DNA of 44,146 bases from a virus (Duplodnaviria; Heunggongvirae; Uroviricota; Caudoviricetes): the IMG/VR virus record IMGVR_UViG_2698536573_000002; one strand, 5' to 3'. Position 1 is the first letter of the stretch. Each line of letters starts with the position of its first letter. Position numbers and translations under genes: made by a program. Shown here one piece after another: positions 23,717 through 44,063 of the stretch. The notes under the pieces are model-generated. The model was not told the origin of the DNA. It ran no database searches and was given only the letters and a program-made list of their open reading frames with translations.

Positions 23717-23825
23717 CAGATTTCTCCGGTTTAACCAGGGCGGGTATCGCTCGGTTTCGGGTATAACCTTAGGAAATTTTTTCCCACCTGTAAAGCACTT
23801 TTTATATAAATCTATAATTATATAA
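23717..23825 (-). repeat. ~109-bp promoter-bearing repeat, copy 1
   Basis: Near-identical to 29974-30082 and 40078-40187; contains TTTACA-17bp-TAAGGT, 5' leader and RBS. Confidence 0.85.
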
Positions 23826-23827
23826 TT

Positions 23828-24415
23828 TTATGCCACTTGCCAGAGAGCATCATGCAACTGGATACCTCCATTGCACTGGTTGCCCCAGCCATGCCAACCA
23901 TCAGGTAAATCACCGCGAGCAAACAGCTCAATACGAGGAACATCACCTAACAGCCTTACCAGCTTGTCACGAACCACATCAGGCTTCCGAGAATGCTCCA
24001 GACGAGGCGATGTAAACGACTGAATGATCCCCGCATCAAGGCGGGTCGGCAATTTGCCTTTTACCGCAAACAAGCAATCTTCACTGTTTGCACGAGTCAT
24101 ATGCCCCATCCCCATCACCAGCTTATCTGGTTGTCGGCTACCACATTTGTTCCATGTGAAGCCCTTCATGGTCATAAGCCTGAATCCCCATGCTTTCACC
24201 ACCAGCAACGCTTCTTCTGGCTGAGTCGGAACCCACCACATGGCCAACAAACACGATTCAGGATTAGCAAGCTGCCAGACAGGAATACGAGCAATATCCT
24301 CAGCTTTCATCGTTGGATACTTAAAACCAGCTCCACGATTCCCATCCTTACACTTATCTTTGTATTCCCAGGGGGGATCTGCATAAATCAGATTAAACAA
24401 TGCAATTGCCTCCAT
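23828..24415 (-). CDS. MT-A70 family DNA N6-adenine methyltransferase
   Basis: 195 aa starting ...LIYADPPWEY (DPPW catalytic motif near N-terminus). Confidence 0.75.
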   Translation of the reverse strand: MEAIALFNLIYADPPWEYKDKCKDGNRGAGFKYPTMKAEDIARIPVWQLANPESCLLAMWWVPTQPEEALLVVKAWGFRLMTMKGFTWNKCGSRQPDKLVMGMGHMTRANSEDCLFAVKGKLPTRLDAGIIQSFTSPRLEHSRKPDVVRDKLVRLLGDVPRIELFARGDLPDGWHGWGNQCNGGIQLHDALWQVA

Positions 24416-28905: not shown

Positions 28906-29973
28906 TCAGGCTTTCAATAGCGATTCTTTCAGATATCGGGCATCAGCCAGGGCGTTTGGAGTAATCTTGCGAACCCATGCATTACGGGTTGGACTCCACT
29001 TAAAGGCGCGTGATTTAAGCAGCGAACGAATGTTTGCCTCTGGTTTGCCAGGGAAATAAAACAGGATGCGGTTATCCTCTGGATCTATCTCCATAGAAAA
29101 GCCGTCGTATTCTTCGCGCTGTGCTCCTGTTACAGACTTGACCGATTCAAGCTCCTTAATACGGCTCTGTAGTCGTTTGATTTCGGCATTATTGTTACTC
29201 AGTGAGTATGAAGGGAAGCCAATGTGCCCACAGAAATCTCCGGCGAGTAACCCTTTGGCTTCGCTTTCAGTAAACTCAAGGTCAATTAATGCGGAAAGCT
29301 GCTGTAATTGGTCTTTTTTGTATTTGCGAATAGCCTTATTTGCGGCCTTCATTTTGATGTGTGACTTCATGCAGCCTTGCAGCTTACGAAGCAACTTAAA
29401 TAGCGCATCAGGATCATCAGACGAAACTCCATTACGGCCGACACCTGCGGCTTTGCTTTCGTAGTACGATGCTCTGCTTTCACACTCAACAAACGATTTT
29501 CTGAATAACGCATCAGCTTTAGACAAACGGCGGCGATGGCCTTTCGCGCTATAATGGTCAACTAAAATCGGCTGGCCTAACGGGATCACATCCAACAGTT
29601 CATGCGCTCGCTTATGCGCCACCGCACCTTCTTTTCTGGCTTTTTCTGCACGAGCAATATATCGGGCAAGACGCGCGTTCTGGCGTTCCTGATAGGTATT
29701 TACGTAATCATCTCCGCGCTGCTGCTGTTCAAGCCATGCTTTGCGCAGCTTTTCTGTTACGTCTACCAACTCTGCAGGGATACAACCTGTTTGGGATTCA
29801 TAAGAGTGACCATCCTCATAAAGACGTCCATCGTCTTCAACAACGAAAAAGGTTTCGTGCTCATCGCTTTTGACCATACGGCCATTAACATGACGTAATC
29901 TATAGCCAGTATCAGTGCTCAACAGGCTGTTAGGGTTGTTGATCCAGTCAGAAATAATTACTTGTTTATTCAT
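28906..29973 (-). CDS. hypothetical protein (355 aa), first gene after repeat copy 2
   Basis: ORF 28906-30123; start at 29973 (MNKQV) preferred because it is the ATG closing the conserved repeat. Confidence 0.45.
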   Translation of the reverse strand: MNKQVIISDWINNPNSLLSTDTGYRLRHVNGRMVKSDEHETFFVVEDDGRLYEDGHSYESQTGCIPAELVDVTEKLRKAWLEQQQRGDDYVNTYQERQNARLARYIARAEKARKEGAVAHKRAHELLDVIPLGQPILVDHYSAKGHRRRLSKADALFRKSFVECESRASYYESKAAGVGRNGVSSDDPDALFKLLRKLQGCMKSHIKMKAANKAIRKYKKDQLQQLSALIDLEFTESEAKGLLAGDFCGHIGFPSYSLSNNNAEIKRLQSRIKELESVKSVTGAQREEYDGFSMEIDPEDNRILFYFPGKPEANIRSLLKSRAFKWSPTRNAWVRKITPNALADARYLKESLLKA

Positions 29974-30082
29974 CAGATTTCTCCGGTTTAACCAGGGCGG
30001 GTATCGCTCGGTTTTGGGTATAACCTTAGGAAATTTTTTCCCACCTGTAAAGCACTTTTTATATAAATCTATAATTATATAT
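29974..30082 (-). repeat. ~109-bp promoter-bearing repeat, copy 2
   Basis: One mismatch vs copy 1 over ~105 bp; -35 tgtaaa at 30046-30051, -10 acctta at 30023-30028 (plus-strand coordinates). Confidence 0.85.
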
Positions 30083-30143
30083 TTATAGATTTTCCGATAT
30101 TCCCGGTGCCTACAAATCACCAAAACAGCTCAAAATGACACTT

Positions 30144-31491: not shown

Positions 31492-32003
31492 TGATGGCCC
31501 CCGTCATTCCAGGTGCTTTTCACCGTGCGGCTGCTTAAAAACCTGCCATCACGAGAAACAGACACATCTCGTTTACCCAACCTCATTTCACGGCGGTAAC
31601 ATTCAGAAAATGCCTCGTCCGGCAGCATATAAATGCGACGCTTCGCCTCCGAATCCAGAAGGGAACGGCTTGGAGTTACATATAAAAACGACTCATCAAT
31701 AGGGACAAAACCACGAGCAAGAATTGCTGGCAGAATGCCAGGAAGAACGCAGAAAACAGCTCCACGATGCAGCAACATCTGGTACTCCATGACCTCCGTT
31801 ATCCCCGTGACGACTGTTACGGTGTCACGTCTGTTACGGCTGGCAACCAGTCGCTGCACACGTCCAATTTTCTGCTCTACAGATAGACGTTTACTATCGT
31901 TATCAATATGATCGATAACAAATCCTTTAATCGTTTGATCAAGGTAGTGCACCACCTGCGATTGAATCTGGTGATTATCACCAAAGAAGGCCAGAATCAT
32001 CAT
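31488..32003 (-). CDS. hypothetical protein
   Basis: 171 aa ORF in early operon. Confidence 0.3.
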   Translation of the reverse strand: MMILAFFGDNHQIQSQVVHYLDQTIKGFVIDHIDNDSKRLSVEQKIGRVQRLVASRNRRDTVTVVTGITEVMEYQMLLHRGAVFCVLPGILPAILARGFVPIDESFLYVTPSRSLLDSEAKRRIYMLPDEAFSECYRREMRLGKRDVSVSRDGRFLSSRTVKSTWNDGGHQ

Positions 32004-32494
32004 TCCTCAAGCCTCCCAAGTGCTGAACGCCGGGCGTTGCTAATCTCCTTATGAATCAGCTCGATATCGCTGGAATCTTTATTCTTAAACTCCAGCACGG
32101 CAATCGCATCACGAACCTCTGAAACGGTTACGTGTGAGTGTTTCCAGCGAGCAATGAATCGCGGACCGCGTAGATTGCAACGCTCCGCAGGTATCCCCAG
32201 CTCAGAGAAAACCGCTTTCAGCCTTGATAAGCAGTTAACAGGGAGATTCCCTTTGATCTTGTTCTGCCGAACCGATGTGCCATCGCTACGCTGGCGCTGA
32301 CGTTCGGCAAAATCTGCCGCCCATTGCTGGACATTAATCCGGCCTTCCGAATACGCCACCAGCAGCGTCAGGTTATCCGCACGAGGGAATCTCTCGAAGC
32401 GATACCAGGCACCAATCAGTGATGACGTAAAGCCAAACTTTCTGGCAACACCAATTTGGCCTCCATTTTCATCAACCCACTCCTGAAAGGTCAT
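32000..32494 (-). CDS. HTH DNA-binding protein, first gene of leftward-reading early operon (Cro/CII-like role)
   Basis: 164 aa; N-terminal HTH-like GQIGVARKFGFTSSLIGAWYRF; divergent from CI-like repressor across operator region. Confidence 0.4.
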   Translation of the reverse strand: MTFQEWVDENGGQIGVARKFGFTSSLIGAWYRFERFPRADNLTLLVAYSEGRINVQQWAADFAERQRQRSDGTSVRQNKIKGNLPVNCLSRLKAVFSELGIPAERCNLRGPRFIARWKHSHVTVSEVRDAIAVLEFKNKDSSDIELIHKEISNARRSALGRLEE

Positions 32495-32512: not shown

Positions 32513-32629
32513 ACCACGATATGTGGTATTAAAACCACAAATCGTGAGTTTTTCAATGGGAAAACAAAAAATAACCTTCTATTTGTGGTCTACCTCTCGT
32601 CTTGCCGTGTGAAAACCACTAAATGTGGT
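32513..32629. promoter_or_regulatory. immunity-region operators, consensus ACCAC-N5-GTGGT
   Basis: accacgatatgtggt 32513-32527, accacaaatcgtgag 32534-32548 (imperfect), half-site gtggt 32585-32589, accactaaatgtggt 32615-32629, between divergent regulator genes. Confidence 0.6.
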
Positions 32630-32666: not shown

Positions 32667-33329
32667 ATGAAAAGCAACGACGAGAACATCAAGAAAGAAA
32701 TAGGTCTGCGCATTCAGACTCTACGGAAACAATCCGGCATGACTGCCGGAGATCTCCAGCAAGTCACTGGAATAGGCTTAAGCACCTTGCAGAACTATGA
32801 GGCCGGATTAAGACAACCATCTATACCTGCCATCAAGAAAATCGCGCACGCCCTGAAAGCATCAGCGCCTTATATCGCGTGCTTAACAGATAACCCGTTC
32901 CCACCCCAGAATACTAACGCTCCTGTTATTCCTGGGCTTGTAGCTATAAAAAATGACATAGCATCGCACGCCGGAGAAAAGCCAGTGCTGGCGATAGAAC
33001 AGGAGATTCTACGAAGCAAGAACATCAACCCATCGTCTCTGTCTGTTCTCCAGAGCAACGATGAGCTAAAGCTAATGTCACCAACAATATCCCCTGGCTC
33101 CCAAGTCCTGATTAATACAGACGATACAGAGATTCATGAGGGGATCTATGCCCTTGAAGACAGAAATGGCCTGGTTGTTTTGAGGCACTGTAGAGTCATA
33201 CCGGGTGACAATGCTGTTATGCTGTCAACCGAAAGGGATGCTGAAATGAACACTAAGCATCTGAATAACGAGGAATTTAAGCGTTATAAAGTTCTTGGCC
33301 GCGTAGTTAGTGTTGTCAACTGGTTATGA
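32667..33329 (+). CDS. CI-like prophage repressor (XRE-type HTH with LexA/S24-like C-terminal domain)
   Basis: 220 aa; N-terminal HTH (LRKQSGMTAGDLQQVTGIGLSTLQNYEAG), C-terminal domain with Ser/Lys candidates (LMSPT ... KVLGRVV). Confidence 0.65.
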   Translation: MKSNDENIKKEIGLRIQTLRKQSGMTAGDLQQVTGIGLSTLQNYEAGLRQPSIPAIKKIAHALKASAPYIACLTDNPFPPQNTNAPVIPGLVAIKNDIASHAGEKPVLAIEQEILRSKNINPSSLSVLQSNDELKLMSPTISPGSQVLINTDDTEIHEGIYALEDRNGLVVLRHCRVIPGDNAVMLSTERDAEMNTKHLNNEEFKRYKVLGRVVSVVNWL

Positions 33330-33371: not shown

Positions 33372-33386
33372 ACCACGCTTTGTGGT
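33372..33386. promoter_or_regulatory. additional ACCAC-N5-GTGGT operator downstream of repressor gene
   Basis: accacgctttgtggt, perfect half-sites. Confidence 0.5.
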
Positions 33387-33421: not shown

Positions 33422-33796
33422 ATGGAATTACATACAGCCAATAAAAACGAAACTCTGATCACTGCTGGAATCGAAATCCAAGCGTTGAACATAGCGATTG
33501 AGTGTATGTTATGCCAACTCATTGATAATGAGAAAGATATCGACTGGATAGAATCTATCCTTCATCTGGCATCAGAACAAAAAGTCTGCCTCAAAACGGC
33601 CTTACAATACGATGTGCCAGCGATATCGAAGCTGTGCCAGCCATTGATGGCATATAACAGGGCTATTATTTCTGTATGCCTCATGATTCTCGATGAAAAC
33701 ACCCCTCTTAGCGACCGCTCAGAAGCTGCTCTAACCCTCTCACGTAAACAGCGACAGCTAGCAAATCAACTGATATCAACGATAGCTGACCTCTGA
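33422..33796 (+). CDS. hypothetical protein adjacent to repressor gene
   Basis: 124 aa, RBS AAGAGG 7 nt upstream; followed by hairpin at ~33802-33819. Confidence 0.4.
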   Translation: MELHTANKNETLITAGIEIQALNIAIECMLCQLIDNEKDIDWIESILHLASEQKVCLKTALQYDVPAISKLCQPLMAYNRAIISVCLMILDENTPLSDRSEAALTLSRKQRQLANQLISTIADL

Positions 33797-33930: not shown

Positions 33931-33946
33931 CATGGAGTCTCGACAA

Positions 33947-34600
33947 ATGACTATATCTGTAGGTATTTTCAACGGAAAAGGCGGCGTAACCAAATCAACC
34001 ATTGCTCGTGCTTTAGCAGTTGCTTATGCAAAGGCTGGCTGGAATGTATGCCTGATCGATATGGATGTGCTTAACGGAACGGTAACGCGTTGGGTACAAC
34101 GCAGAATGGCCAACAATATCGAACCTGCAATCGCGGCGCAGCCGTGCGGCACGCCATCACAAGTCCAGAAAATCATCGAATCAGAAGTATACGACCTGGT
34201 TATCGTTGATGGCGGTGCCTACGCATCTGAATCAGTACCGAAGCTCTCTGAATTTCTGGATATGGTTATTTTGCCAACCAGATTCTCTACCGATGACCTG
34301 GAAACCACCGTTAACACAGCTCACGGCATCGTTAAAAAGGGTGTACCAATCAAGAAAATTTGCATGGTGTTTTCCGGCGCGGCTGAAAACGAAGCTGACT
34401 ATATTGAAGCCCAAGAGTACCTGGCTAATACGCCATACTTTGTTGTCGATAAGTACATTCCCCACAAGCCAGCTCTGAGCAAAGCTCAGGATAAAGGCTT
34501 AAGCCTCATTGAGTGCTCATACGTTGCGCCACGCAAAAAAGCAGACGACGTTATTCAGGGGATTATCAACCAGCTTGAGGCTCTGACTACTGCCGCGTAA
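33947..34600 (+). CDS. ParA/ParF-type partition ATPase
   Basis: Deviant Walker A GIFNGKGGVTKST; start at second ATG (GGAG 9 nt upstream); ORF from 33932. Confidence 0.8.
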   Translation: MTISVGIFNGKGGVTKSTIARALAVAYAKAGWNVCLIDMDVLNGTVTRWVQRRMANNIEPAIAAQPCGTPSQVQKIIESEVYDLVIVDGGAYASESVPKLSEFLDMVILPTRFSTDDLETTVNTAHGIVKKGVPIKKICMVFSGAAENEADYIEAQEYLANTPYFVVDKYIPHKPALSKAQDKGLSLIECSYVAPRKKADDVIQGIINQLEALTTAA

Positions 34601-34643: not shown

Positions 34644-34892
34644 ATGGCCGCACCATCAAAACCACCAAAGAAGAACAGCAAAGGCGTACCGCCATCGATC
34701 GAACAACCGCAGGTTTTCGACCCGACTGAAACGCCAGCCAGAACCAAATCAGGTGGGGCACAAATGGCGTTTAACGTCGACCCTGAATTTAAACGCGAGT
34801 ACAAAACGTTCGCCAGCTCAATGGATATGTCATTGAAAGAAGTGCTAACAAAATCTTTTGAGTTACTCAAGGCTCAATACAACCAGAAGTAA
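34644..34892 (+). CDS. ParG-like ribbon-helix-helix partition protein
   Basis: 82 aa, unstructured basic N-terminus then RHH-like MAFNVDPEFKREYKTFASSMDMSLKEVL; RBS GAGAGGA. Confidence 0.55.
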   Translation: MAAPSKPPKKNSKGVPPSIEQPQVFDPTETPARTKSGGAQMAFNVDPEFKREYKTFASSMDMSLKEVLTKSFELLKAQYNQK

Positions 34893-35104: not shown

Positions 35105-35112
35105 ATTCAACC

Positions 35113-35136
35113 ATAAAAAAGGCCCCCGAAGGGGCC
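35113..35136 (-). terminator. intrinsic terminator (minus-strand orientation)
   Basis: ggcccc-cgaa-ggggcc hairpin followed by U6 on minus strand, directly after small ORF 35143-35265. Confidence 0.5.
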
Positions 35137-35142
35137 TAATCG

Positions 35143-35265
35143 CTACTTGCTGCTAATGTTTATCGTCACATTCAGAGCGTTATCAGTAATCTTCCAACCC
35201 TCTCCATGTGGCGTAAACAAAGCCCCAGTAACAACGATAAAAATACACATGTAGTATTTTTTCAT
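35143..35265 (-). CDS. small hydrophobic peptide (40 aa)
   Basis: MKKYYMCIFIVVTGALFTPHGEGWKITDNALNVTINISSK; RBS AAGGG; own terminator. Confidence 0.35.
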   Translation of the reverse strand: MKKYYMCIFIVVTGALFTPHGEGWKITDNALNVTINISSK

Positions 35266-35655
35266 TGTGTGGCCCTTACAGGCCGTTTCACGGCATCCCC
35301 ACCGACGAAAATGACGCGAGAGCAAGCACGCTGTTTGTGCCTGCGTGGTACGGCAAGTGGATAATCCTTTCCTGAAAGTCAGTGCCCGGGTGCGAATCGG
35401 CGGAAAGGCCCCAAGCCATATTACACGTCATACCCTTCATAATGAAGGAATAAAAAACGCTTTTATTACATGAGATTACACGTAAATAAGTTAAAAACCT
35501 TCATTTTGCATGAGCTAATGAGCTAAATTTTTTTATATGAATAGTGGACTATTCACCTCAGTTAGGTAAGAATGTAGTTGCTGTTTGTGCTTGCGTGGTT
35601 GTATTAGTACAACGACGTTATGCTGAAAGGACCGCGAATCCGATCAGCACGAAAG

Positions 35656-35685
35656 AACCGTCCTCAATAGGGCGGTTTTTTTGTT
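35656..35685 (+). terminator. intrinsic terminator (plus-strand orientation)
   Basis: aaccgtcc-tcaata-gggcggtt followed by T8. Confidence 0.45.
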
Positions 35686-35695
35686 TCTTCACTCA

Positions 35696-36235
35696 TTAAA
35701 ACAGTCCAAGACCTGTTAATGGCTTCTGATAATCTCGATTATTCATATCAGCGCCGTTATCGACCCAATTTCTATATGCTTCATCGCAACAATACATTAC
35801 AGCAGTTGGAGTATCTGGGATGCCGCCCCCAAATGAGAATCCCATTGAGCTAATGCTAACTCTTTCTAATGGCCTATTTCTCAATGCTTCAAACCCCTTG
35901 CTATTAAAGTAACGCAGCATCAGAGGTAAAAGGTTATCCTCGTCCTGACTGATTGTTCCAGGGAAAAAGTAGTAACCATAACGGTTAAATTCGGGAATAA
36001 GATTTTCTACCAATGACATGAAATTCACTGGAGTAATATTAAGGGCTGTGAAAGCACCAAAAAGGGCGTCAACTGTTAATACAGACTGCCCGTTCTCTAT
36101 CTTTGTCCATGCGTTTGGTGTTTTTCCAGCAGCTTGAGCCAGTACTCCTTGATGCACACCTCTTTCTAGCCTAAGTTCTTTTATGATCATTAGGTGAATT
36201 GTTGAAAAACATGAGTTTTTTGACTGTTCAATCAT
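35696..36235 (-). CDS. XRE-type HTH protein with uncharacterised C-terminal domain
   Basis: 179 aa; HTH IKELRLERGVHQGVLAQAAGKTPNAWTKIENGQ; RBS GGGGA. Confidence 0.45.
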   Translation of the reverse strand: MIEQSKNSCFSTIHLMIIKELRLERGVHQGVLAQAAGKTPNAWTKIENGQSVLTVDALFGAFTALNITPVNFMSLVENLIPEFNRYGYYFFPGTISQDEDNLLPLMLRYFNSKGFEALRNRPLERVSISSMGFSFGGGIPDTPTAVMYCCDEAYRNWVDNGADMNNRDYQKPLTGLGLF

Positions 36236-36372
36236 TTTTTATCCCCATATTGAATTTTTTCTTTGTTCCCAACTTTAACAAAACACCACAACTTAGGAAT
36301 ATATAGTTCCTTAAATGAATCATACATTCCCACCTTCGGTATATCAAGAAAATTAAAAGCTCGGCATTCAAA

Positions 36373-36387
36373 CCCACACTATGTGGT
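36373..36387. promoter_or_regulatory. ACCAC-N5-GTGGT-like operator upstream of antirepressor operon
   Basis: cccacactatgtggt (9/10 half-site match). Confidence 0.45.
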
Positions 36388-36419
36388 TGTCTCTGTTAAA
36401 ATCCCGCCGTATTGACATA

Positions 36420-36521
36420 AATGCGCCATTGGTGGACACTTTCCGAGCCGTAGCAAAATCTACGGTCGGGATTGGAACCCCGATAATCATCATGGCGCAT
36501 ACCGCGTTAGCGGTTTTTTTA
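36420..36521 (+). ncRNA. candidate small regulatory RNA (c4-like) upstream of antirepressor operon
   Basis: TTGACA at 36412-36417; terminator accgc-gtta-gcggt + T7 at 36501-36520; short elements complementary to leader near 36603-36634. Confidence 0.3.
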
Positions 36522-36685
36522 TGCGTAAAGCACTGCTACACCCAAATTATGGTGGGGCGTGCGGGGGAGTCGTAAGACTCGCCGGATTCCATGGTGACCG
36601 GTAGTTCCAACCCTGTACGTCTCACCACCCAATGATTGGAACCAGACGGTGGTGAGTATCCTTAACCTTTAAGGGAACTATCACC

Positions 36686-36877
36686 ATGACAAACCTACCC
36701 CATGACTATTACGTCAACCTCGTAAAGATCCTTCTCAAGAAAGCCTCATACGCCGATAAATTCCGCCTGGCTGAAATCATCGAGCGCGAAGCTATGCGCA
36801 TCGCCAGCAACGATAACGCTGTTTCTGTCGCAAAAATCTCCCTCGTAACCAAAGTAGTTATGGGAGGTGCAAAATGA
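36686..36877 (+). CDS. small leader protein translationally coupled to antirepressor (icd-like position)
   Basis: 63 aa; stop TGA overlaps ant ATG (ATGA); RBS AAGGGA. Confidence 0.45.
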   Translation: MTNLPHDYYVNLVKILLKKASYADKFRLAEIIEREAMRIASNDNAVSVAKISLVTKVVMGGAK

Positions 36878-38055
36878 AAACGCTTCCGACCGTTAACACC
36901 CTACAGCCTATCCTGCATAACCAGCTCCCCGTTATCACTACTGAACTACTGGCGCAATTGTATGGAACCGAGCGCCAACGTCTGACAAACAATTTCAATA
37001 GAAACAAGGAACGTTTTATAGAAGGTAAACACTTTTTTAGGATAGAAGGTAAAGAGTTACGAGAGTTGAAGAACAAAAACTCTTTAAGAGTTCCTGTGAG
37101 AGTAGTTAACGAACCATCTTTAAGAGGGTTACAAATTCCCCCGAAAGTTCGCTCCCTCATCCTCTGGACAGAACGCGGGGCTGCACGTCACGCCAAAATG
37201 CTTGAAACTAACCAAGCGTGGGATGTGTTCGAACGGCTGGAAGACAGCTACTTCAACCAGAACGCACAAACGGCCGCGACCGTAACCGTCTCACCAAACA
37301 ATGCTCGTGAGGTTGTCGATACGCTCAACGCCAAACCAATGTATTACGTTAAGGTGTGCAACAACGAGCCACTCACAACCTCAGCCGATGTAGCCCAGGC
37401 ATTCAGCACCACAAACAATTCCATCGTTATGGCCATCGATGCATTACGCATTCCTCGCACAGCTGCGGCACGTCATTTCTTTAAAGAGCAACGACCGCTG
37501 GAAGGAAGCGACCGCGAAATAACAATCTATCGCATGACAAAAGACGGATTTACCTTGCTCATGGAAAGTATCGACGGTCCAGGCGTGAAGGATATCAAGC
37601 TGGCCTACATTGAAGCCTTTAACGCTATCAGCAGCGTGTTAAAGGCAGAATACGAGCGAATGCTATACAACCGACTGTATCAGGAAACAAAGATTATCCG
37701 AACGGCAACAGAACATCATCGGCTATTAACGGAACCAAACTACCGCAAGACACTAATCAAAGAGTTTGACAAGGCGACGGAGAAAACTAAAGCGGCACTA
37801 AATCTACCAACAATGACTAAAGATGATGTGATATCAGCCTTACTTCTTGATCTGCTCAGAAACGTCAGAGCACTTATCAGTTTTGACGAAAACCTGAATC
37901 CTCAGCTCAAGCTACTACCACCGACAGGCAAAGTAGTCGACCAAGCAGATCACAACAGCATACTCAGCGTACTGGATGCAAACCTGCCAGCCAGGACACT
38001 ACAGGAGCTGATAAAAATATCTGCGGATAAACTGGCCGCAGGTGCAAAACCATAA
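36874..38055 (+). CDS. antirepressor (ORF6N/KilA-N-like N-terminal domain plus Rha-like domain)
   Basis: 393 aa; N-terminal LPVITTELLAQLYGTERQRLTNNFNRNKERF and central MYYVKV...TIYRMTKDGFTLLM blocks. Confidence 0.6.
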   Translation: MKTLPTVNTLQPILHNQLPVITTELLAQLYGTERQRLTNNFNRNKERFIEGKHFFRIEGKELRELKNKNSLRVPVRVVNEPSLRGLQIPPKVRSLILWTERGAARHAKMLETNQAWDVFERLEDSYFNQNAQTAATVTVSPNNAREVVDTLNAKPMYYVKVCNNEPLTTSADVAQAFSTTNNSIVMAIDALRIPRTAAARHFFKEQRPLEGSDREITIYRMTKDGFTLLMESIDGPGVKDIKLAYIEAFNAISSVLKAEYERMLYNRLYQETKIIRTATEHHRLLTEPNYRKTLIKEFDKATEKTKAALNLPTMTKDDVISALLLDLLRNVRALISFDENLNPQLKLLPPTGKVVDQADHNSILSVLDANLPARTLQELIKISADKLAAGAKP

Positions 38056-38057
38056 AA

Positions 38058-38090
38058 CAAAGCGCCCGATTTGGGCGCTTCTTCAATTCT
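38058..38090. terminator. bidirectional intrinsic terminator between convergent genes
   Basis: agcgccc-gattt-gggcgct flanked by T-rich tracts on both strands. Confidence 0.5.
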
Positions 38091-38725
38091 TAATATTTCG
38101 GTGTAATCAGTAGCGATACATGCCCTGATTTGTCACGAGAAACGTAATACTCGCCTCTCTTAGTCTTGAACTCAGCTTTCTGCATATCTGATTTAACAAT
38201 CTGCTCTAACTGCGCAATCACGGTGTCTCTTTCACTTGACGCATCCAAGACTTCAACTGCTACGGCCATAGAAAGCAAGGAATCAGAGTTAGGCTTGGAT
38301 ACTCGCCATAATAACTCAGAAATCTTCCCATCCTTATCAACTCTAGCCCGACCGTTAACAGATGAGTTGATGGCAAATTCAACGGTGTTATTACCTTGTT
38401 TAACAGACTTAATTCTTATAGTGGAGGTGGCTTTTCCTGATGTAGCGATGCCTTCAAGGTCATCATTATATAACTGCTTAAACTTATCTACGGTCACACC
38501 ATCAAAAGCAGCTCCGGTAGTAGCCGCAGTGTTGGAGTCTTCTGGGATCAAGGTCACAGCCGCAAGAGTATTAACAACTACAAAAGTAGCAATCCCGAGA
38601 AAGCCACTCACTAAAACAGCTTTGAACTTACCACCAGAAGACGAGGCACATTGTTTCCGATATGCGCCACGAACTACGAAGAAACACAAAATCAGGCTAA
38701 TAATAAACGCCACCAGCATCCCCAT
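38090..38725 (-). CDS. membrane protein with two N-terminal TM helices
   Basis: 211 aa; hydrophobic segments then soluble domain; RBS AAGGAG. Confidence 0.45.
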   Translation of the reverse strand: MGMLVAFIISLILCFFVVRGAYRKQCASSSGGKFKAVLVSGFLGIATFVVVNTLAAVTLIPEDSNTAATTGAAFDGVTVDKFKQLYNDDLEGIATSGKATSTIRIKSVKQGNNTVEFAINSSVNGRARVDKDGKISELLWRVSKPNSDSLLSMAVAVEVLDASSERDTVIAQLEQIVKSDMQKAEFKTKRGEYYVSRDKSGHVSLLITPKY

Positions 38726-39290
38726 AGAAATCTCCTTTTAGATATAAGGGTAAAGCAATATCGTATTAGATCTTCCTTAAGACACAACCCCCCCTCCCCC
38801 CATACAGGGTGCCCTTTACCGGAGTTCCGGCCCCTTCTCAAAAGCATCAAAAAAAGCTCGAGATCGAGTACCGGAACTCATGCCACCAGATAGCTCCACA
38901 TCGTTTCCAATGCTTCGCCGCCGTGTGCGCCCTGTGGCCCACAATCATGCCATTGGTCGTCTGATATACCTTCTTCTGCTCATTGAGCACAGGCGAGTTG
39001 TCGCACTCCTGCCTTTCTCAGACTCGACTTAGTTTAGATCGCTGTTCCTGGCTTGCGTCAGCACACTTTCCCCTTGTACGCATACCCGCGCGCCACTTCG
39101 CCCAAAAACACCGAACCCAACGAAGTAGCAAAGACAACGACGCGAGCGTGAGTCTGAAACGTGCACCAGTAAAAAAGGGGTTGCAGGCGCAAAAAGATTT
39201 GATTATCTTTAGACGCAAGAAAGCCGCCCCAATCAAGAGGTGTCTTTTTAAATCCAGCCTACCAAGCAAGATTTAAATTTCAGACTGAAA

Positions 39291-39320
39291 ACCGCCCGGC
39301 AAGGCGGTTTTTGTCTTTCT
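39291..39320 (+). terminator. intrinsic terminator (plus strand)
   Basis: aaccgcc-cggcaa-ggcggtt followed by TTTTTGTCTTTC. Confidence 0.5.
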
Positions 39321-39360
39321 GGCGCTTACATTACACCACCATAAAACGATCCGTAAAGGA

Positions 39361-39633
39361 TCATTTGATCTCTTGTTCCAATTCTGACGACACTTTAACC
39401 TTTTCCCATACAAGGGTTTGCAGCCTTAACAGAATCGCATCTTTATCAAGGTGTGAAAGATCCTTAACCATATCGTCAAATGACAGAACGCGAATGGCCA
39501 TCTCAATGACCCTCGGCGGCTCCCCCTTCTCATATCGCTTATATGTAGCCAACGATATCCCAAATTCTTCGGCGGCTCGCTCCTGCGTCCAGTTCATCCC
39601 ACGACGCCATAATTTCAATTCATAACCCGTCAT
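39361..39633 (-). CDS. XRE-family HTH protein
   Basis: Start at MTGYEL (GGAGG 5 nt upstream); LKLWRRGMNWTQERAAEEFGISLATYKRYEKGE. Confidence 0.55.
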   Translation of the reverse strand: MTGYELKLWRRGMNWTQERAAEEFGISLATYKRYEKGEPPRVIEMAIRVLSFDDMVKDLSHLDKDAILLRLQTLVWEKVKVSSELEQEIK

Positions 39634-39696
39634 AGCATCCTCCTCGCACAATATTAACACTCGCAAAGTGTCAAAATGACACTTTGCGTATTGTGT

Positions 39697-40077
39697 TTAC
39701 TTAACGAGGAATAAAAATGGTTTATTGTTCGGCGGTGTAATCGGAGCTGGCTCGCTTTTGCTCATGCGATCAGTGTACCAGGCCAGCTCCTTGTCAAAGT
39801 AAGCCTGATTAAAATAGGCAATGAATGTAGTTTCAAATCCATAACGACCGCTAATACGCAGCATCTGATTGCCGTTCTCTGTTTCCAGATATACCTGGGC
39901 ACGTTCCTGATTCTCCTTCAGCCAGGTTAAAGCCTCATCGCACGAGGACACACGATACTCATCATCGTAGCCGTCATCGATGCGGCTTGAAGAAGAACGG
40001 CAAATCACGCCAACAGAACCAGCCAGGATAGTTTGAATTTTAAGGAAAGCGTTTTTGCGGATTTTAATCATGCTCAT
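39697..40077 (-). CDS. hypothetical protein, first gene after repeat copy 3
   Basis: 126 aa; ATG at 40077 closes the conserved repeat. Confidence 0.4.
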   Translation of the reverse strand: MSMIKIRKNAFLKIQTILAGSVGVICRSSSSRIDDGYDDEYRVSSCDEALTWLKENQERAQVYLETENGNQMLRISGRYGFETTFIAYFNQAYFDKELAWYTDRMSKSEPAPITPPNNKPFLFLVK

Positions 40078-40187
40078 CGGGTTATCTCCGGTTTAACCAG
40101 GGCGGGTATCGCTCGGTTTCGGGTATAACACTAGGAAATATTTTCCCACCTGTAAAGCACTTTTTATATAAATCTATAATTATATAA
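40078..40187 (-). repeat. ~109-bp promoter-bearing repeat, copy 3
   Basis: About 95 percent identical to copies 1 and 2; same -35/-10 spacing. Confidence 0.85.
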
Positions 40188-40240
40188 TTCCATGAGCACA
40201 AAAAAGCCCCTTTGCAACAGGGGCTTATCATTCGTTCTGA

Positions 40241-40540
40241 TCAGATGTTAAACGCTATTCGTTTTCCTGTGGGAAGCTCAACATCCAGGCTTAATTTGCC
40301 TCCCATAGCTTCAACGTAACGCTTTAATGTCGCCAGCTTTAAATCATTTCCGCGCTGCTCCAGCTTTGTTACTGCTGGCTGGCTTATACCCATCGCCTCA
40401 GCAACCTGCTTTTGTGATAACTGGAGTTCTTCACGCATCATCTGCAAGCCGACCTCAAGAATCATCTCATCTGCCATTTCTTTAATTCGCGCCTGGCTTT
40501 CCGGTGAACGGCTGGCAATCACCTCATCTAATGTTCTCAT
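40241..40540 (-). CDS. HTH antitoxin (HigA-like)
   Basis: 99 aa; LQLSQKQVAEAMGISQPAVTKLEQ and C-terminal LATLKRYVEAMGGKLSLDV. Confidence 0.55.
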   Translation of the reverse strand: MRTLDEVIASRSPESQARIKEMADEMILEVGLQMMREELQLSQKQVAEAMGISQPAVTKLEQRGNDLKLATLKRYVEAMGGKLSLDVELPTGKRIAFNI

Positions 40541-40893
40541 TACTTGCTCTCCAGTGTGTTCAGATGTGCTGCAAACTCATCCTCAGCTATACGCACCAGT
40601 TTTTTATAAAACCGCTTATCGTTACTTTTGTCTCCTGCACAAAGAACGATAGCCCGGCGAATCGGATCGAACGCATAAAAGGCTCTTATCGGACGGCCAG
40701 AAAACTGAACGCGAAGCTCTTTCATATTTTTGTACCGAGAACCTTTTACGGTATCGGCATATGGCCTGGGTAACTCAGGTCCGTAAACCTGTAGCTTTTT
40801 CAAATCAGCCAAAACCTTTTCCTGAAGAGCGTCTTCTTGCTCATTTAGCCAGTCGTCAAATCGCTGGCTAAAAAGTACCGTCCACATGCTCAA
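40540..40893 (-). CDS. RelE/HigB-family toxin (Gp49-like)
   Basis: 117 aa; toxin-first order with overlapping stop/start; TVKGSRYKNMKELRVQFSGRPIRAFYAFDPIRRAIVL. Confidence 0.55.
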   Translation of the reverse strand: MSMWTVLFSQRFDDWLNEQEDALQEKVLADLKKLQVYGPELPRPYADTVKGSRYKNMKELRVQFSGRPIRAFYAFDPIRRAIVLCAGDKSNDKRFYKKLVRIAEDEFAAHLNTLESK

Positions 40894-41131
40894 TCCTATA
40901 ACCTGTAGTTTATATCACTAACTATATAACCTGTGGGTTATAATTTCAAGAAAAACGGGGCCATTTAACATAATGGACGTTATCGGCACCACCGGATCAC
41001 CGTTCATTGTCGGATCTAAAAAATCCGCTCAAAAGATCATGTTTTCCTGGGCGTTTTCCACTGTTTTTTATGTTGCTTATTTGTTAATGAAATCTCGTTT
41101 TCAGTTTCGCCTCATTTTCGACACGAAAGCC

Positions 41132-41422
41132 CTATTTTTGTGACTTTACTCCTGGCATATGGACTTCCCAGCGACGAATCCCCATAGCTGCGCAAAAATC
41201 AGCCACATAATTCAATCCCGCCCATTCGCGGATACCACCACGGGCTTTTTCAATGAAAACGGCAATCCCTTTTTTATTGAGAGCAAAAAGCCGCCAGCTT
41301 TTTGTCACTTCGTCCTGGGTAGCCACAACACAAGTGAAAGCTCCCATGCGATACAGGTCCAAGAACTCTTTGCGTGTTTTGCGTACAAGTTCCATAACAA
41401 ACCTCATATTTGCATGTTTCAA
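41132..41422 (-). CDS. hypothetical protein (second gene of two-gene module beside ori)
   Basis: 96 aa; start overlaps upstream gene stop. Confidence 0.35.
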   Translation of the reverse strand: MKHANMRFVMELVRKTRKEFLDLYRMGAFTCVVATQDEVTKSWRLFALNKKGIAVFIEKARGGIREWAGLNYVADFCAAMGIRRWEVHMPGVKSQK

Positions 41423-41706
41423 ACATCTGTTTTGTTATCAATGAAGATTAACCCTAACCCAGCGAAGTAACACAGCAGCGCCCAGGCTGCATACGGAATG
41501 CTGGATCTGGATGTGGACTCCTTTAACATCTGCCAGTTGCGAACATTGCGACTATCTTTTAAGCCTAGTTTTTTGGCCAACTGCGAGCCGCTCATTCCGG
41601 TCAGGCCAATGACTGCCCGAACTTCTCCACATGTAGGAGATTCCCATTCATCCGCTTTTTTTAAACAAGCCGGATTCAACATTTTTAAAACAGTATCTTT
41701 ATCCAT
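41419..41706 (-). CDS. small HTH-like protein with C-terminal TM helix
   Basis: Start at third ATG (GGAG 6 nt upstream); LTGMSGSQLAKKLGL then IPYAAWALLCYFAGLGLIFI. Confidence 0.35.
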   Translation of the reverse strand: MDKDTVLKMLNPACLKKADEWESPTCGEVRAVIGLTGMSGSQLAKKLGLKDSRNVRNWQMLKESTSRSSIPYAAWALLCYFAGLGLIFIDNKTDV

Positions 41707-41759
41707 AACCATCTCCATTTATTATATCTACGATGGTAGGAAATCTTTTCCTATGTGGC

Positions 41760-42349
41760 AATAGAAATTTACTACATTGCGTATAAGACAAGTTTTCTAT
41801 GTCTAATAGAAAAGGATGTTTCTTACGTTTTGTCGCGTTCTGATTGCTACTGTGTGCGTATTTATCGACGTTTATTGATAAGGTCCGTCCCTTCCTCCTG
41901 CAAAGCCCGGCCGTAGGCCTTATTTCGGCCTTATATAAATTGATTTTGTATAGTTCGAAACGCGCCGTTTCGAAAAGGATGATCAGGCTGCTCCATGCCT
42001 CCGGCAAGTGCCGGAGGAGGTATATTTGAGCGTAGCGACTCGAACCGGCGCGAGCTTTAGCTCGCTGCAAGGGCGAACATATTCACAGGCAAAGCCTGCG
42101 TAAGTTAAATAAAGAAAGTCTTAATAAAAGAAAGTGATTTTGCATTTATTTGTTTAGTGCATCTATTATAAAAAACCATTTGCATATACATATCAAAACT
42201 GTGGATAACTTTATTATCCGATGCCTGTAAAGGCGATATTTTTGCTGTGTTCAGGTTTAGAGAAAATTAATTTAGACTATTTTTTGAACAGATATTTTAT
42301 TGCGACGTAGATAATCCTCCGGTAAAACCGGATTCATCATTCAGGTGGG
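41760..42349. other. putative plasmid replication origin region downstream of repA
   Basis: AT-rich; DnaA box TTATCCACA (revcomp of 42200-42208); palindromes ttcgaaacg-cgc-cgtttcgaa and cctccggca-ag-tgccggagg near 41950-42015. Confidence 0.45.
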
Positions 42350-43198
42350 TTAATGTTGGAGTGATTTCCAGGTCTTTCTTAGCCTGTTATAACGCTGCTC
42401 AACGAGGGATCGTAAATATGCAAGGTCAGCACCTGGATACATGCCATCAGCAAATTCCTGGCTAACCTCTCTAGTGATTTGATGACGAAGTTCGGCCTCT
42501 CCCTTTTCCCGGACAAGACGCGCAGCTCTCTCCGCTGCTTTCTGTTTTGCCTTTATCTCTCTGGCCGTCTTCCTCTGGCGCCATACATTCTCCATCTGCT
42601 CCTGAATAACAATACGCTTATAATCAGCCTCCGTTATCGCTTTTTTAAGCCGTTCGCTATTCTTCGCATTGAAGTAATTAAGTTTCTGGCTAACCGCACG
42701 TCTCCATGCTTGTTCAGTAATACCAACGGTTTCCAGCAGTTGATCACGAATCTCTATTTTCGCTGGCCAATACTGTTTATTCACCCGATCCCAGCGACGT
42801 TCATAATCAATAAAACCTAACGCTTTCAGTTGCGACAACGCCCTTGTACAGCGCGTTATAGACTTGTTCCCAGCTTCGGATACGGTAGACAGGCCGCAAA
42901 AATCAGCCAACGCCTCAGCACTAGCCAGAACCCGCTTAGAAATGATGTTTACATGGTGCAAAATCGCAGCGATCACAGCATTAATCGCCCGACGACGATG
43001 CTCGTTTATCCGGCGCTTCCGCTCTGACGGTTGATTAACGTAGAACGCAACCTCACACGTAAGATCACGCCCATTAATGCGCTGTAAAGCATCAGATAAC
43101 ACCAGCGGCAGCTTGTGCGTATGGTGCTTTGGAGGCTGGAACTCCGGCGACAAATTACAAACGTAAGCTGAACGTAGAGACGGCATTGGTCTATCCAT
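42350..43198 (-). CDS. repA: replication initiation protein, IncFII RepA1 family
   Basis: Contains KSITRCTRALSQLKALGFIDY block resembling R100/R1 RepA1 as I recall it; ORF open to 43327, internal ATG at 43198 gives ~283 aa; upstream part is leader targeted by antisense RNA. Confidence 0.7.
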   Translation of the reverse strand: MDRPMPSLRSAYVCNLSPEFQPPKHHTHKLPLVLSDALQRINGRDLTCEVAFYVNQPSERKRRINEHRRRAINAVIAAILHHVNIISKRVLASAEALADFCGLSTVSEAGNKSITRCTRALSQLKALGFIDYERRWDRVNKQYWPAKIEIRDQLLETVGITEQAWRRAVSQKLNYFNAKNSERLKKAITEADYKRIVIQEQMENVWRQRKTAREIKAKQKAAERAARLVREKGEAELRHQITREVSQEFADGMYPGADLAYLRSLVEQRYNRLRKTWKSLQH

Positions 43199-43242
43199 AT
43201 GTTCGCTCTTGCGTCCACGGAAAACCAACGTATAATGGGAGT

Positions 43243-43320
43243 TGTCGAGGCGCCCATGGTTAGTTGTTGGTTTTCCGTGGATGTCGCAAGAAGCCCGCAG
43301 ATTTATCTGCGGGCTTTTTG
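43243..43320 (+). ncRNA. antisense RNA to repA leader (CopA/RNAI-like)
   Basis: Plus-strand promoter TTGCGT-16bp-TATAAT (43209-43236); terminator gcccgcag-atttat-ctgcgggc + T-run at 43293-43323; fully within repA leader. Confidence 0.55.
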
Positions 43321-43362
43321 TTTCCATATCTGGTCACTTTCCAACCAGACACCCACAATCAT

Positions 43363-43379
43363 AACCACGTTACGTGGTT
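43363..43379. promoter_or_regulatory. ACCAC-N5-GTGGT palindrome in repA promoter region
   Basis: aaccacgttacgtggtt, perfect, ~36 bp upstream of repA leader ORF start. Confidence 0.5.
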
Positions 43380-43508
43380 TTGAGAGAACTCTACCACAAC
43401 ACTTTCGGTCATGCACGAAGTCTCTCACTGATCGAACGATAATCCACCAGTAAAAGGATCTAAATTGGATCTCGTTTTGCGAGCATCATACTACTGGCCT
43501 AACTCCAG

Positions 43509-44063
43509 TCAATGATTCCCAGCCGGAAACCTGCGGTAAAGCGTGGATAAAGTAACATCGAAGATAATCGCTATCCGCTTACGTGAAACACCATTCGCAA
43601 TAAGCCTTCCGATCTGTTCCCATTGCTCTGGTGACAGCTTTGAGCGGCGTCCTCCGATCCTGCCGTTAGCCCTTGCCACCGCCAATCCTGCACGCGTTCT
43701 TTCAATCATATTTTCCCGCTCCATCTCTGCGACTGCACTCAGCATCGTGTAGGCAAAGCGGCCAATTGAAGTGCTAATTTTTATCCCTTCCGTAATCGAA
43801 ATAAACTCAATGTTGTTTGATAAAAAATGGTTAAGTAAATCAACAAGATGAATCAGGGAACGCCCCATTCGGTCCAGCTTCCAGACAATAACCGTATCGC
43901 CCGGCCGTAACACCTTAAGTAGCTTATCAAGTCCTGGTCGTTTTGATTTAGCACCGGATATTTTATCTTCAAAAATCCGGTCACATCCTAAACTCCTGAG
44001 CGCCTCCAGTTGTAATTCCAAATTCTGGTCAAAAGTTGACACCCTCGCATAACCATATTGCAT
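43509..44063 (-). CDS. serine recombinase, DNA invertase (Gin/Cin/Pin/Hin family)
   Basis: 184 aa; GYARVSTFDQ catalytic Ser, VWKLDRMGRS, AEMERE, GRIGGR, C-terminal HTH LSTLYRR. Confidence 0.8.
   Translation of the reverse strand: MQYGYARVSTFDQNLELQLEALRSLGCDRIFEDKISGAKSKRPGLDKLLKVLRPGDTVIVWKLDRMGRSLIHLVDLLNHFLSNNIEFISITEGIKISTSIGRFAYTMLSAVAEMERENMIERTRAGLAVARANGRIGGRRSKLSPEQWEQIGRLIANGVSRKRIAIIFDVTLSTLYRRFPAGNH

Follow-up and report, generated by a model that had tools for sequence, protein, structure and literature searches.

A predicted operator motif of a CI-like repressor recurs at the repA and ant control regions of an IncFII-type phage-plasmid

Phage-plasmids must reconcile low-copy maintenance with runaway lytic replication. 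The locus described here raises the question of whether a prophage repressor may act beyond its immunity region on the antirepressor operon and on plasmid replication, as a first-pass annotation had proposed by analogy with N15. The window analyzed, a 44,146-nucleotide stretch of the IMG/VR record IMGVR_UViG_2698536573_000002, belongs to a virus that is a 48-kb plasmid resident of E. coli, i.e., a phage-plasmid. Its gene set includes an IncFII-type RepA, ParA, a CI-like helix-turn-helix (HTH) repressor, and a P1-like isrK/C4/icd/ant module. The nearest records were circular phage-plasmids of 46–52 kb, among them the plasmid of E. coli ATCC 25922 and Yersinia phage vB_YpM_39. The CI family was confined to 46–49 kb contigs of the same phage-plasmid family, and the DNA of the repA control region was found only within this family, which is widespread in enterobacteria yet unstudied. 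Many E. coli isolates host the family, the reference strain ATCC 25922 among them.

The CI-like repressor gene (32667–33329, plus strand) encodes 220 amino acids with an N-terminal HTH_3 domain (Pfam HTH_3, 4.6e-11; PHROG phrog_4 "transcriptional repressor," 3.3e-23) and is divergent from the early operon (32494, minus strand). O1 (ACCACGATATGTGGT, 32513–32527; matrix score, 27.3–27.6 bits) begins directly past the -10 element TTTAAT (32533–32528, minus strand) of the leftward early promoter. O2 (ACCACAAATCGTGAG, 32534–32548; 23.9–25.7 bits), which was recognized by sequence reading and has a degenerate right half (GTGAG), lies 21 bp from O1 and fills the 17-bp spacer between TTGAAA (32556–32551) and TTTAAT on the minus strand. 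O3 (ACCACTAAATGTGGT, 32615–32629), identified by the core-motif scan, sequence reading, and the matrix, precedes the cI start codon by 38 bp and has TATAAA (32634–39) just downstream. No further repeated element able to serve a repressor was found in the 172-bp immunity region, and the CI-like repressor is the presumed binder of the motif. This arrangement shares with the lambda-type switch an HTH repressor divergent from the early operon and several palindromic operators on the intervening promoters, but CI here is without a detectable C-terminal S24 (LexA-like) autocleavage domain. Pfam analysis of CI gave no Peptidase_S24 match (E ≤ 0.01), and its PDB relatives covered the HTH domain only.

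Copies of the palindrome outside the immunity region had been reported in the first-pass annotation at 33372–33386 (accacgctttgtggt), 36373–36387 (cccacactatgtggt), and 43363–43379 (aaccacgttacgtggtt), and all three were found at these positions. The comparison with shuffled sequence that it had called for yielded six CCAC-N5-GTGG matches in the window against 0.29 expected, a count reached in none of 100 shuffles. When up to one mismatch was allowed, ACCAC-N5-GTGGT matched eight times against 0.58 expected. A 21-bp matrix was then built from the immunity-region sites only, with the distal sites never in training. It scored the distal sites at 26.5 (after cI), 26.2 (repA), and 20.6 (ant) bits, compared with 12.9 bits for the top remaining position in the window and a 95th percentile of 15.3 bits for the maximum score in 300 Markov-simulated windows. 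Matrix score and enrichment place the distal palindromes in one site family with the operators that separate the early operon from the CI-like repressor gene, as had been claimed. The statement that the same motif recurs holds for all three copies, with the qualification of a single mismatch (CCCAC) in the one at ant. The six real sites, namely O1, O2, O3, and those at 33372 (after cI), 36373 (ant), and 43364 (repA), are distributed over five control regions and have the extended consensus AAAACCAC-N5-GTGGTTTT. An exact core match at 517–529 was rejected as background; it scored 9.1 bits, had no A/T flanks, and was positioned within a minus-strand tail-fibre ORF.

The site after cI (ACCACGCTTTGTGGT, 33372–33386) is the closest fit to the consensus (31.2 bits; 26.5 bits with the immunity-trained matrix) and has the cI terminator hairpin on one side and the operon of a 124-aa ORF and parA on the other. 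The par genes have flanking AT-rich 8-bp repeat arrays of their own, a family distinct from the motif.

The repA gene (42350–43198, minus strand) encodes an IncFII-type initiator (Pfam IncFII_repA, PF02387; 149.8 bits, 1.3e-43). Its ORF is open back to ATG 43327, and the annotated starts in relatives alternate between the long and the short form. The predicted repA operator (ACCACGTAACGTGGT on the minus strand, 43364–43378; 29.5 bits, or 26.2 bits with the immunity-trained matrix) is 36 bp from ATG 43327, the opening codon of the minus-strand ORF in the repA frame, in agreement with the distance of about 36 bp upstream of the leader given previously. It is placed 9 nt past an extended -10 element, TGgTAGAGT (43388–43396, minus strand), and thus covers about +4 to +18 of that promoter. 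Abutting the operator is an alternative -10 element, TATGAT (43363–43358), which no types other than those of E. coli and Salmonella retain. The operator is preceded, at a distance of about 100 nt, by a further promoter, designated P1 (TTGACT-16-TATGAT; 43485–43512, minus strand), which is conserved in most family members; no copB-like or otherwise plausible ORF was found in the approximately 100 nt separating the two. A candidate antisense RNA (43243–43323, plus strand) opposite the repA leader was recognized from its promoter (TTGCGT-16-TATAAT, 43209–43236), strong terminator hairpin (43287–43320), and stable fold (z = -6.9 for 43253–43325). This block is conserved in relatives, and the candidate RNA gave no CopA-like family match in Rfam.

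The repA site was found at the same position beside TGnTAGAGT, itself invariant, in all seven aligned relatives, down to 30% RepA and 33% CI identity. Among the relatives retaining the full palindrome, the half-sites of the repA copy were invariant at 10 of 10 positions in four diverged types, compared with 1 of 5 in the spacer. The same figures (10/10 and 1/5) were obtained for the post-cI site in five diverged types. Across the E. coli, Salmonella, Citrobacter, Klebsiella, and Yokenella types, the invariant positions amounted to 20/20 in half-sites, 2/10 in spacers, and 96/180 in flanks. Invariant half-sites around a free spacer are the typical pattern for a dimeric HTH site. The putative recognition-helix segment of CI, STLQNYE, was unchanged across four family types; in the Serratia group, the CI HTH differs and the motif sites are degenerate in parallel in all regions. 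Since CI and the motif were always found together in the data, the two cannot be dissociated, and the link between them was drawn from position and co-occurrence only.

In N15 and phiKO2, the repressor CB binds OL1/OL2 over the repA promoter, lowering repA transcription and copy number (PMC4997575). The present element likewise has prophage-repressor sites, with binding predicted here, both in the immunity region and on the plasmid initiator promoter. However, N15 is a linear plasmid with repA beside cB, whereas the closest complete records here are circular and 10 kb separate the site from cI. The two also differ in RepA (N15-type against IncFII-type, Pfam IncFII_repA) and in operator sequence, that of N15 being a 16-bp TA-N10-TA instead of ACCAC-N5-GTGGT. 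An N15-like identity of the element was rejected on the basis of the circular closest complete records, the IncFII-type RepA, and a tblastn search with the element's CI (E ≤ 1e-5), which gave no N15-type phage genus among the matches listed.

The replication region also resembles that of the IncFII plasmids R1/R100. In those replicons, CopB represses the repA promoter, and the further elements are CopA, which is an antisense RNA, and an upstream promoter that is constitutive. The features shared are an IncFII-family RepA, two promoters of which the upstream one feeds the same leader, a predicted antisense transcript with a strong terminator opposite the leader, and, in the reading proposed here, a repressor site on the proximal promoter. 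Unlike in R1/R100, no copB is located between the promoters and the site matches phage repressor operators. The antisense RNA differs in having no CopA-like Rfam match, and the IncFII analogy is therefore functional only for this RNA.

The isrK/C4/icd/ant operon (36447–38055, plus strand) was delineated with Rfam, Pfam, and PHROG. On the plus strand, it comprises the isrK RNA (36447–36520; Rfam RF01394, 70.2 bits), the C4 antisense RNA (36545–36632; Rfam RF01695, 84.3 bits, the gathering threshold being 45), a 63-aa icd-like ORF (36686–36877) that overlaps the ant start (36874), and the antirepressor gene (36874–38055; Pfam ORF6N and Phage_pRha, PHROG anti-repressor families). Sequence reading indicated complementarity between 9 nt of C4, CUCACCACC, and GGUGGUGAG just before the icd-like ORF. 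The main promoter-like element (TTGACA-18-GACACT; 36412–36441, plus strand) is conserved in Salmonella-type relatives and stops 6 nt short of the isrK 5' end. The ant-proximal site (CCCACACTATGTGGT, 36373–36387; 20.6 bits) is upstream of this element, with a gap of 24 bp to its TTGACA (36412–36417). From its center, about 67 bp remain to the isrK start served by the main promoter, and a site centered near -67 cannot occlude the obvious promoter. A candidate extended -10 element, TGtTAAAAT (36394–36402, plus strand), was found post hoc by sequence reading; in a hypothetical second, repressible promoter built on it, about -36 to -22 would be covered by the ant site. TGgTAGATT occurs at a similar offset in the Citrobacter/Yokenella block.

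The 58–59 matched Escherichia/Klebsiella plasmid records retained the ant site. To its left, unrelated sequence was found in several fetched loci; the site lies at the edge of a variable cargo slot. The Citrobacter/Yokenella relatives have an equivalent site with the same 24-bp gap, the intervening sequence being only 29% identical. The site is absent from the Salmonella/C. freundii-type relatives, which share the same ant promoter. Judging by these comparisons, the ant site is lineage-specific.

The published accounts consulted describe the N15 antirepressors in terms of a member of the SOS regulon (antC) and of regulation through a processed small RNA, without mention of control by CB; the N15 precedent therefore covers repA only. 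The first-pass proposal that the repressor controls both ant and replication as in N15 appears sound for repA, where the predicted site is on a conserved promoter. It is weaker for ant, to which the N15 precedent does not extend and where the site is confined to particular lineages. Phage P1 offers a closer precedent for the ant site, as Op51, a C1 operator, reportedly lies upstream of the immI operon (c4-icd-ant). All components of immI are present here, namely the C4 RNA, an antirepressor, and a small icd-like ORF that overlaps the start of ant. The C1 repressor of P1 also has dispersed operators on a plasmid prophage, the replication gene RepL included (PMC8546580), and scattered operators of one repressor with a replication gene among its targets would be a further shared feature. 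On the other hand, the P1 operator is an asymmetric 17-mer, C1 is not of the HTH_3/CI type, and it acts on the lytic replicon, not on plasmid RepA. The present element has only about six sites, an additional isrK RNA before C4, and an Ant that is an ORF6N + Rha protein. The isrK-orf45-anrP locus of Salmonella Gifsy-1 also has an IsrK-family RNA (RF01394), immediately followed by a small ORF and an antirepressor-type gene. It differs from the operon described here, in which isrK is separated from the ORFs by a C4 RNA and a predicted CI-type operator lies upstream.

On this sequence evidence, we consider it fairly likely that the element's own CI-like HTH repressor uses the three distal palindromes as additional operators and thus has a small dispersed regulon. 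Every relative has the repA copy on a conserved promoter, for which reason control of plasmid replication by the repressor is the best reading, and one repressor probably ties plasmid copying to viral dormancy. In lysogeny, a repressor dimer at +4 to +18 of the extended -10 promoter would silence the proximal repA promoter, and the same site would also fill the spacer of the alternative TATGAT promoter. Basal repA expression would come from the upstream promoter P1 and be trimmed by the leader antisense RNA. RepA is needed in lysogens, yet the repA and post-cI sites are the strongest consensus matches, and the model therefore needs read-through from P1. The phage repressor would stand in place of the CopB of classical IncFII replicons, with an outcome like that of CB at OL in N15. 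Once the repressor was inactivated, presumably by Ant as no autocleavage signature was detectable, repA would be derepressed and more replication would be available for lytic growth.

At ant, the reading is weaker and concerns the E. coli and Citrobacter/Yokenella lineages, in which the repressor would be bound at a fixed 24 bp upstream of the -35 element. It could repress the second, extended -10 promoter, giving an Ant–repressor positive feedback, or could insulate the operon from variable cargo inserted at the left. A more elaborate version is put forward only tentatively: the repressor may have taken the CopB role of the IncFII replicon, such that copy number reads the lysogeny state, and may also guard ant through a terminator–operator–promoter block at the cargo slot, with Ant/repressor positive feedback replacing RecA-dependent cleavage.

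It is also conceivable, if rather unlikely, that CI binds the distal sites architecturally, as loop anchors with the immunity region, roadblocks, or insulators, above all at the ant site. The location near -67 and the terminator that precedes the ant site in several lineages would suit such a role, as would its occurrence only in elements with par-ant cargo, the Salmonella/C. freundii types having neither cargo nor site; at repA, the position approximately 100 nt downstream of the conserved P1 would permit a roadblock. However, the conserved core promoter overlapped by the repA site is enough for direct repression, and the fixed 24-bp gap favors local, phase-dependent action at ant. Recognition of ACCAC-N5-GTGGT by another protein, such as a Cro-like early protein, a small partition protein, RepA, or a host factor, seems somewhat less probable still. 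In lambda-like switches, the lytic repressor and CI use common operators; here, no lytic repressor was found, the first early gene (164 aa, 32000–32494) had no Pfam match, and the post-cI site is upstream of the par operon. Nevertheless, the placement of sites in the spacer of the early promoter and at its start suits a lysogenic repressor, and the immunity region offers no alternative candidate operator. The repeats of the par genes likewise speak against a partition protein, and the whole-window matrix scan gave no site downstream of repA, the expected location of the IncFII origin. HTH-179 is unrelated to CI and missing from many elements that retain the ant site.

That the distal copies are chance matches, or recombination "linker" sequences at module junctions without a regulatory role, is highly improbable. 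The ant site does lie exactly at a breakpoint between conserved and variable DNA, and the core match at 517 is demonstrably due to chance. Against this stand the shuffling result, half-sites that are invariant across lineages while spacers vary, and the conserved positions of the sites relative to promoter elements; moreover, 15–21 bp is very short for homologous exchange.

To our knowledge, direct repressor control of a plasmid initiator has so far been documented only in the N15 group. An N15-like logic in an unrelated system, with circular records, an IncFII-type initiator, another repressor, and an antisense RNA, would suggest convergent wiring. For a family that many E. coli isolates carry, the repressor-operator reading provides a model that is simple and testable, and it predicts that any cargo on these elements would rise in copy number upon antirepressor expression or repressor loss. 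Resistance genes are found on some family members, for example TEM-1 in the Serratia plasmid p2.

Six putative operator sites were identified in the window: O1 (32513–27), O2 (32534–48; right half GTGAG) and O3 (32615–29) in the immunity region, and three distal sites, located after cI (33372–86), ahead of the ant operon (36373–87) and at repA (43364–78). The distal palindromes were those reported by the first-pass annotation, and the motif was far more frequent than in shuffled sequence: CCAC-N5-GTGG matched six times against 0.29 expected, and 0 of 100 shuffles contained six or more matches. A 21-bp matrix was trained on eight immunity-region sites only and then used to scan the window, which avoids circularity. 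The post-cI (26.5 bits), repA (26.2 bits) and ant (20.6 bits) sites all scored above the best remaining position (12.9 bits) and above the 95th percentile of the maximum score in 300 simulated windows (15.3). An exact core match at 517 scored 9.1 bits; it lies inside a minus-strand tail-fibre ORF and was rejected as background. Sites pooled across relatives gave the longer consensus AAAACCAC-N5-GTGGTTTT. An exact CCAC-N5-GTGG was also present within a 90-aa HTH gene of Salmonella relatives (L005, 25508–25520; also L007, L008, and L014). It is kept among these closely related elements, has no A/T flanks, and is probably a chance match.

The early promoter upstream of the leftward early operon (start up to 32494, minus strand) consists of TTGAAA (32556–51), a 17-bp spacer occupied by O2, and TTTAAT (32533–28). 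O1 starts directly after the −10 element, its spacing from O2 being 21 bp and thus equal to two helical turns, and O3 lies 38 bp upstream of the start codon of cI, which encodes the CI-like HTH_3 repressor (32667–33329, plus strand). This arrangement is the geometry required by a lysogenic repressor; no other repeated element was found in the 172-bp intergenic region, and CI was the sole regulator encoded there. We infer that CI binds the motif sites, and the assignment stays at that level because its close homologues were confined to this phage-plasmid family, so that motif and protein are inseparable and no case separating them was found. The close homologues formed 13 clusters, those with long contigs lying on 46–49 kb contigs (Escherichia, Salmonella, Citrobacter, Klebsiella, and Yokenella), and none of intermediate similarity was detected among phage records. 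The C-terminal half of CI gave no S24 peptidase signature and reads KLMSPTISPGSQVLI at the position of the LexA-type GDSMxPT, which fits antirepressor-dependent induction; CI may be a non-cleavable repressor that needs an antirepressor for induction. Between O2 and O3, a degenerate operator-like element with a 6-bp spacer (ACCTT-CTATTT-GTGGT, 32574–32589) aligned with the third palindrome (ACTAC-N5-GTAGT) of Serratia-type immunity regions.

The sites were compared across Salmonella and Citrobacter freundii types (CI identity 64–66%), C. amalonaticus, Klebsiella aerogenes, and Yokenella types (60–63%), Serratia types (33–36%), and two metagenomic relatives whose RepA was approximately 30% identical. 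Both the Salmonella/C. freundii group and the C. amalonaticus/K. aerogenes/Yokenella group had the post-cI site in the same place with different central spacers, and likewise the repA site wherever the fetched locus extended to repA. Summed over the post-cI and repA region alignments, 20 of 20 half-site positions were invariant, compared with 2 of 10 spacer positions and 96 of 180 positions in the 45-bp flanks. Such a pattern is the mark of selection acting on a dimeric HTH site. Serratia-group CI proteins differ in the HTH immediately ahead of the putative recognition helix (GL replaced by PR) and, in parallel, the sites at every location combine a good half (AACCAC) with a degenerate one. 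Among E. coli-type elements (the window, L010, L011, L013, L016, and L020–L033), the post-cI spacer (33377–33381) occurred as GCTTT, ATTTT, or GATTT within a 95-bp region that was otherwise near-identical, the variation being concentrated in the spacer.

Alignment of the repA control region from seven family members revealed a conserved upstream promoter (TTGACT-16-TATGAT, 43512–43485, minus strand), a conserved GATC-rich segment, and an extended −10, TGnTAGAGT (43396–43388), that was invariant in all seven. The operator lies 9 nt downstream of this −10 and covers approximately +4 to +18 relative to that conserved promoter. In E. coli- and Salmonella-type elements, the spacer of a TATGAT −10 (43363–58) is likewise occupied by the operator, an arrangement shared with O2 at the early promoter. 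Repressor control of repA, which encodes an IncFII-family RepA (42350–43198/43327, minus strand), is well supported in silico. No copB-like ORF was found between the two repA promoters; the region would be a two-promoter replicon of the IncFII style, with the phage repressor in the role of CopB. Experiments on N15 and phiKO2 showed that CB, when bound to OL1/OL2, represses repA and lowers copy number (PMC4997575), and the predicted outcome here is the same. The strand opposite the repA leader carries a promoter (TTGCGT-16-TATAAT, 43209–43236, plus strand) and a strong terminator (43287–43320; fold z = −6.9), and is a candidate for encoding an antisense RNA. Across the family, the antisense −10 and terminator (43209–43323, plus strand) were kept, together with an invariant block that reads GCGCCTCGACAACTCC on the repA strand; neither the leader nor the candidate RNA matched a CopA-type family in Rfam. 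In most aligned relatives, GATC motifs clustered between the upstream promoter and the operator (43440–43470) and may represent a Dam/SeqA input. The control-region DNA was confined to this phage-plasmid family, and a RepA-alignment profile search of genome contigs returned no match.

The ant operon comprises isrK RNA (36447–36520), C4 antisense RNA (36545–36632), a 63-aa icd-like ORF (36686–36877), and an ORF6N/Rha antirepressor gene (36874–38055), all on the plus strand. Compared with Salmonella elements, the window carries a 1.3-kb insertion (35105–36410) with a ryfA-like (ryfA/timP-like) RNA (35115–35413, minus strand; Rfam 134.7 bits) and HTH-179, a second HTH gene (35696–36235, minus strand), and homology returns at 36411, coinciding with the TTGACA of the main promoter (TTGACA-18-GACACT). 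The Salmonella and C. freundii types had neither this cargo nor the ant site. Other E. coli-type elements kept the site and everything rightward of it but had unrelated DNA on its left; the 58–59 matched Escherichia/Klebsiella plasmid records aligned from its left edge. As judged from these alignments, the ant site is not part of the cargo block. C. amalonaticus and Yokenella carried ACCAC-AATGC-GTGAT ahead of the same promoter, after a similar terminator and, as in the window, 24 bp from TTGACA, with only 7 of those 24 bp identical. The centre of the ant site lies approximately 67 bp ahead of the point where isrK begins, a position from which the main promoter cannot be occluded. In both site-bearing lineages, an extended −10-like element was found 6–8 bp past the site (TGtTAAAAT at 36394–402 in the window; TGgTAGATT in C. 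amalonaticus/Yokenella). We hypothesize, post hoc, that it could be a second, repressible promoter with the ant site at −36 to −22.

The antirepressor module is lost or truncated in some relatives. It was reduced to a 138-aa Rha fragment in L038 and L039 (C. freundii type) and L008 (S. Weltevreden), and isrK/C4/icd/ant were not seen in the fetched sequence of K. aerogenes L035, which ended at the contig end. In the window, one transcription unit (36447–36632) places an IsrK-family RNA that has its own terminator immediately ahead of the C4 RNA, combining the isrK arrangement of Gifsy-1 with the immI arrangement of phage P1. The slot at 35105–36410 held different cargo in other family members. 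The HTH-179 protein (179 aa) has an uncharacterised C-terminal domain, and its gene has its own promoter-like TTGATA-17-TATGAT (36347–36319).

A protein other than CI, including a Cro-like protein sharing the operators, could in principle bind the motif sites. A partition protein is a poor candidate, since a separate set of AT-rich 8-bp repeat arrays accompanies the par genes, and the ACCAC sites were rejected as partition sites on the same grounds. RepA would be expected to have a site downstream of repA, the expected place of an IncFII origin, but the matrix scan gave none there. HTH-179 was rejected as binder at the ant site, since it shows no relationship to CI and can be lost without loss of the site, its 1.3-kb block being replaced by other DNA in elements where the site persists. 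The distal sites are unlikely to be recombination scars or products of chance; chance was ruled out by the shuffles and the held-out matrix, with 517 as the sole chance match. A purely architectural role was likewise considered, and for the ant site the main alternative is an insulator or roadblock at the cargo slot. LexA control of ant in the style of N15 antC was rejected: CTGT-N8-ACAG matches came at the frequency expected by chance, none of them close to the ant promoter, and no LexA box was found near the operon. Control by the repressor is plausible at ant, as a lineage-specific feature. The first-pass proposal that the repressor also controls ant and repA, as in N15, fared well for repA and was left as a plausible extension for ant.

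The parallel with N15 applied to repA only, and extended neither to ant nor to the type of element. Telomere-phage papers assign antC to the SOS regulon and describe a small processed RNA as controlling the immA antirepressor. Op51 of phage P1, the operator upstream of c4-icd-ant, is a closer precedent than N15 for an operator upstream of ant; C1 of phage P1 likewise has dispersed operators, one of them controlling a replication gene. The last 14 kb of the window showed 97–99% identity to vB_YpM_39/41/44, which are circular 49-kb Yersinia phages, and to approximately 60 non-mobilizable Escherichia plasmids of 46–52 kb, including that of E. coli ATCC 25922 (48.5 kb; NZ_CP009073.1). Gene content, which also includes a Hin-type invertase (43509–44063, minus strand), and the circular relatives therefore indicate that the element is a circular phage-plasmid, combining an immI module like that of P1 with a replicon of the IncFII type, and is no telomere phage of the N15 kind. 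A literature search found no report on regulation in this family; papers on HQ103 pseudolysogeny and on ETEC phage-like plasmids concern other elements or are silent on this regulation. Overall, these results place a known regulatory theme, in modified form, in a phage-plasmid family that is common but unstudied. In L004, a Serratia sp. JSRIV006 plasmid (NZ_CP074139.1), the cI-par-Rha-repA maintenance/immunity backbone was accompanied by lambda-like siphovirus tail genes replacing the contractile tail, and therefore this backbone moves between virion types.

A second dispersed repeat family consisted of AT-rich unit arrays with an 8-bp period (TTATATAA/TTATAGAT) at 23802–33, 24930–77, 28834–73, 30059–90, 33819–50, 33884–931, 34600–39, and 40164–95. 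Immediately ahead of parA (33932–34600, plus strand), which follows a 124-aa ORF (33422–33796, plus strand), there are two arrays, and another separates parA from an 82-aa gene (34644–34892, plus strand). Possible identities for the arrays are dispersed centromere or ParB-type binding arrays, for which N15 offers a parallel, and promoter cassettes. Three of them terminate a 127-nt repeat (23704–23830, 29961–30087, and 40066–40192; 95% and 84% identical), and similar side matches occurred in a Salmonella relative.
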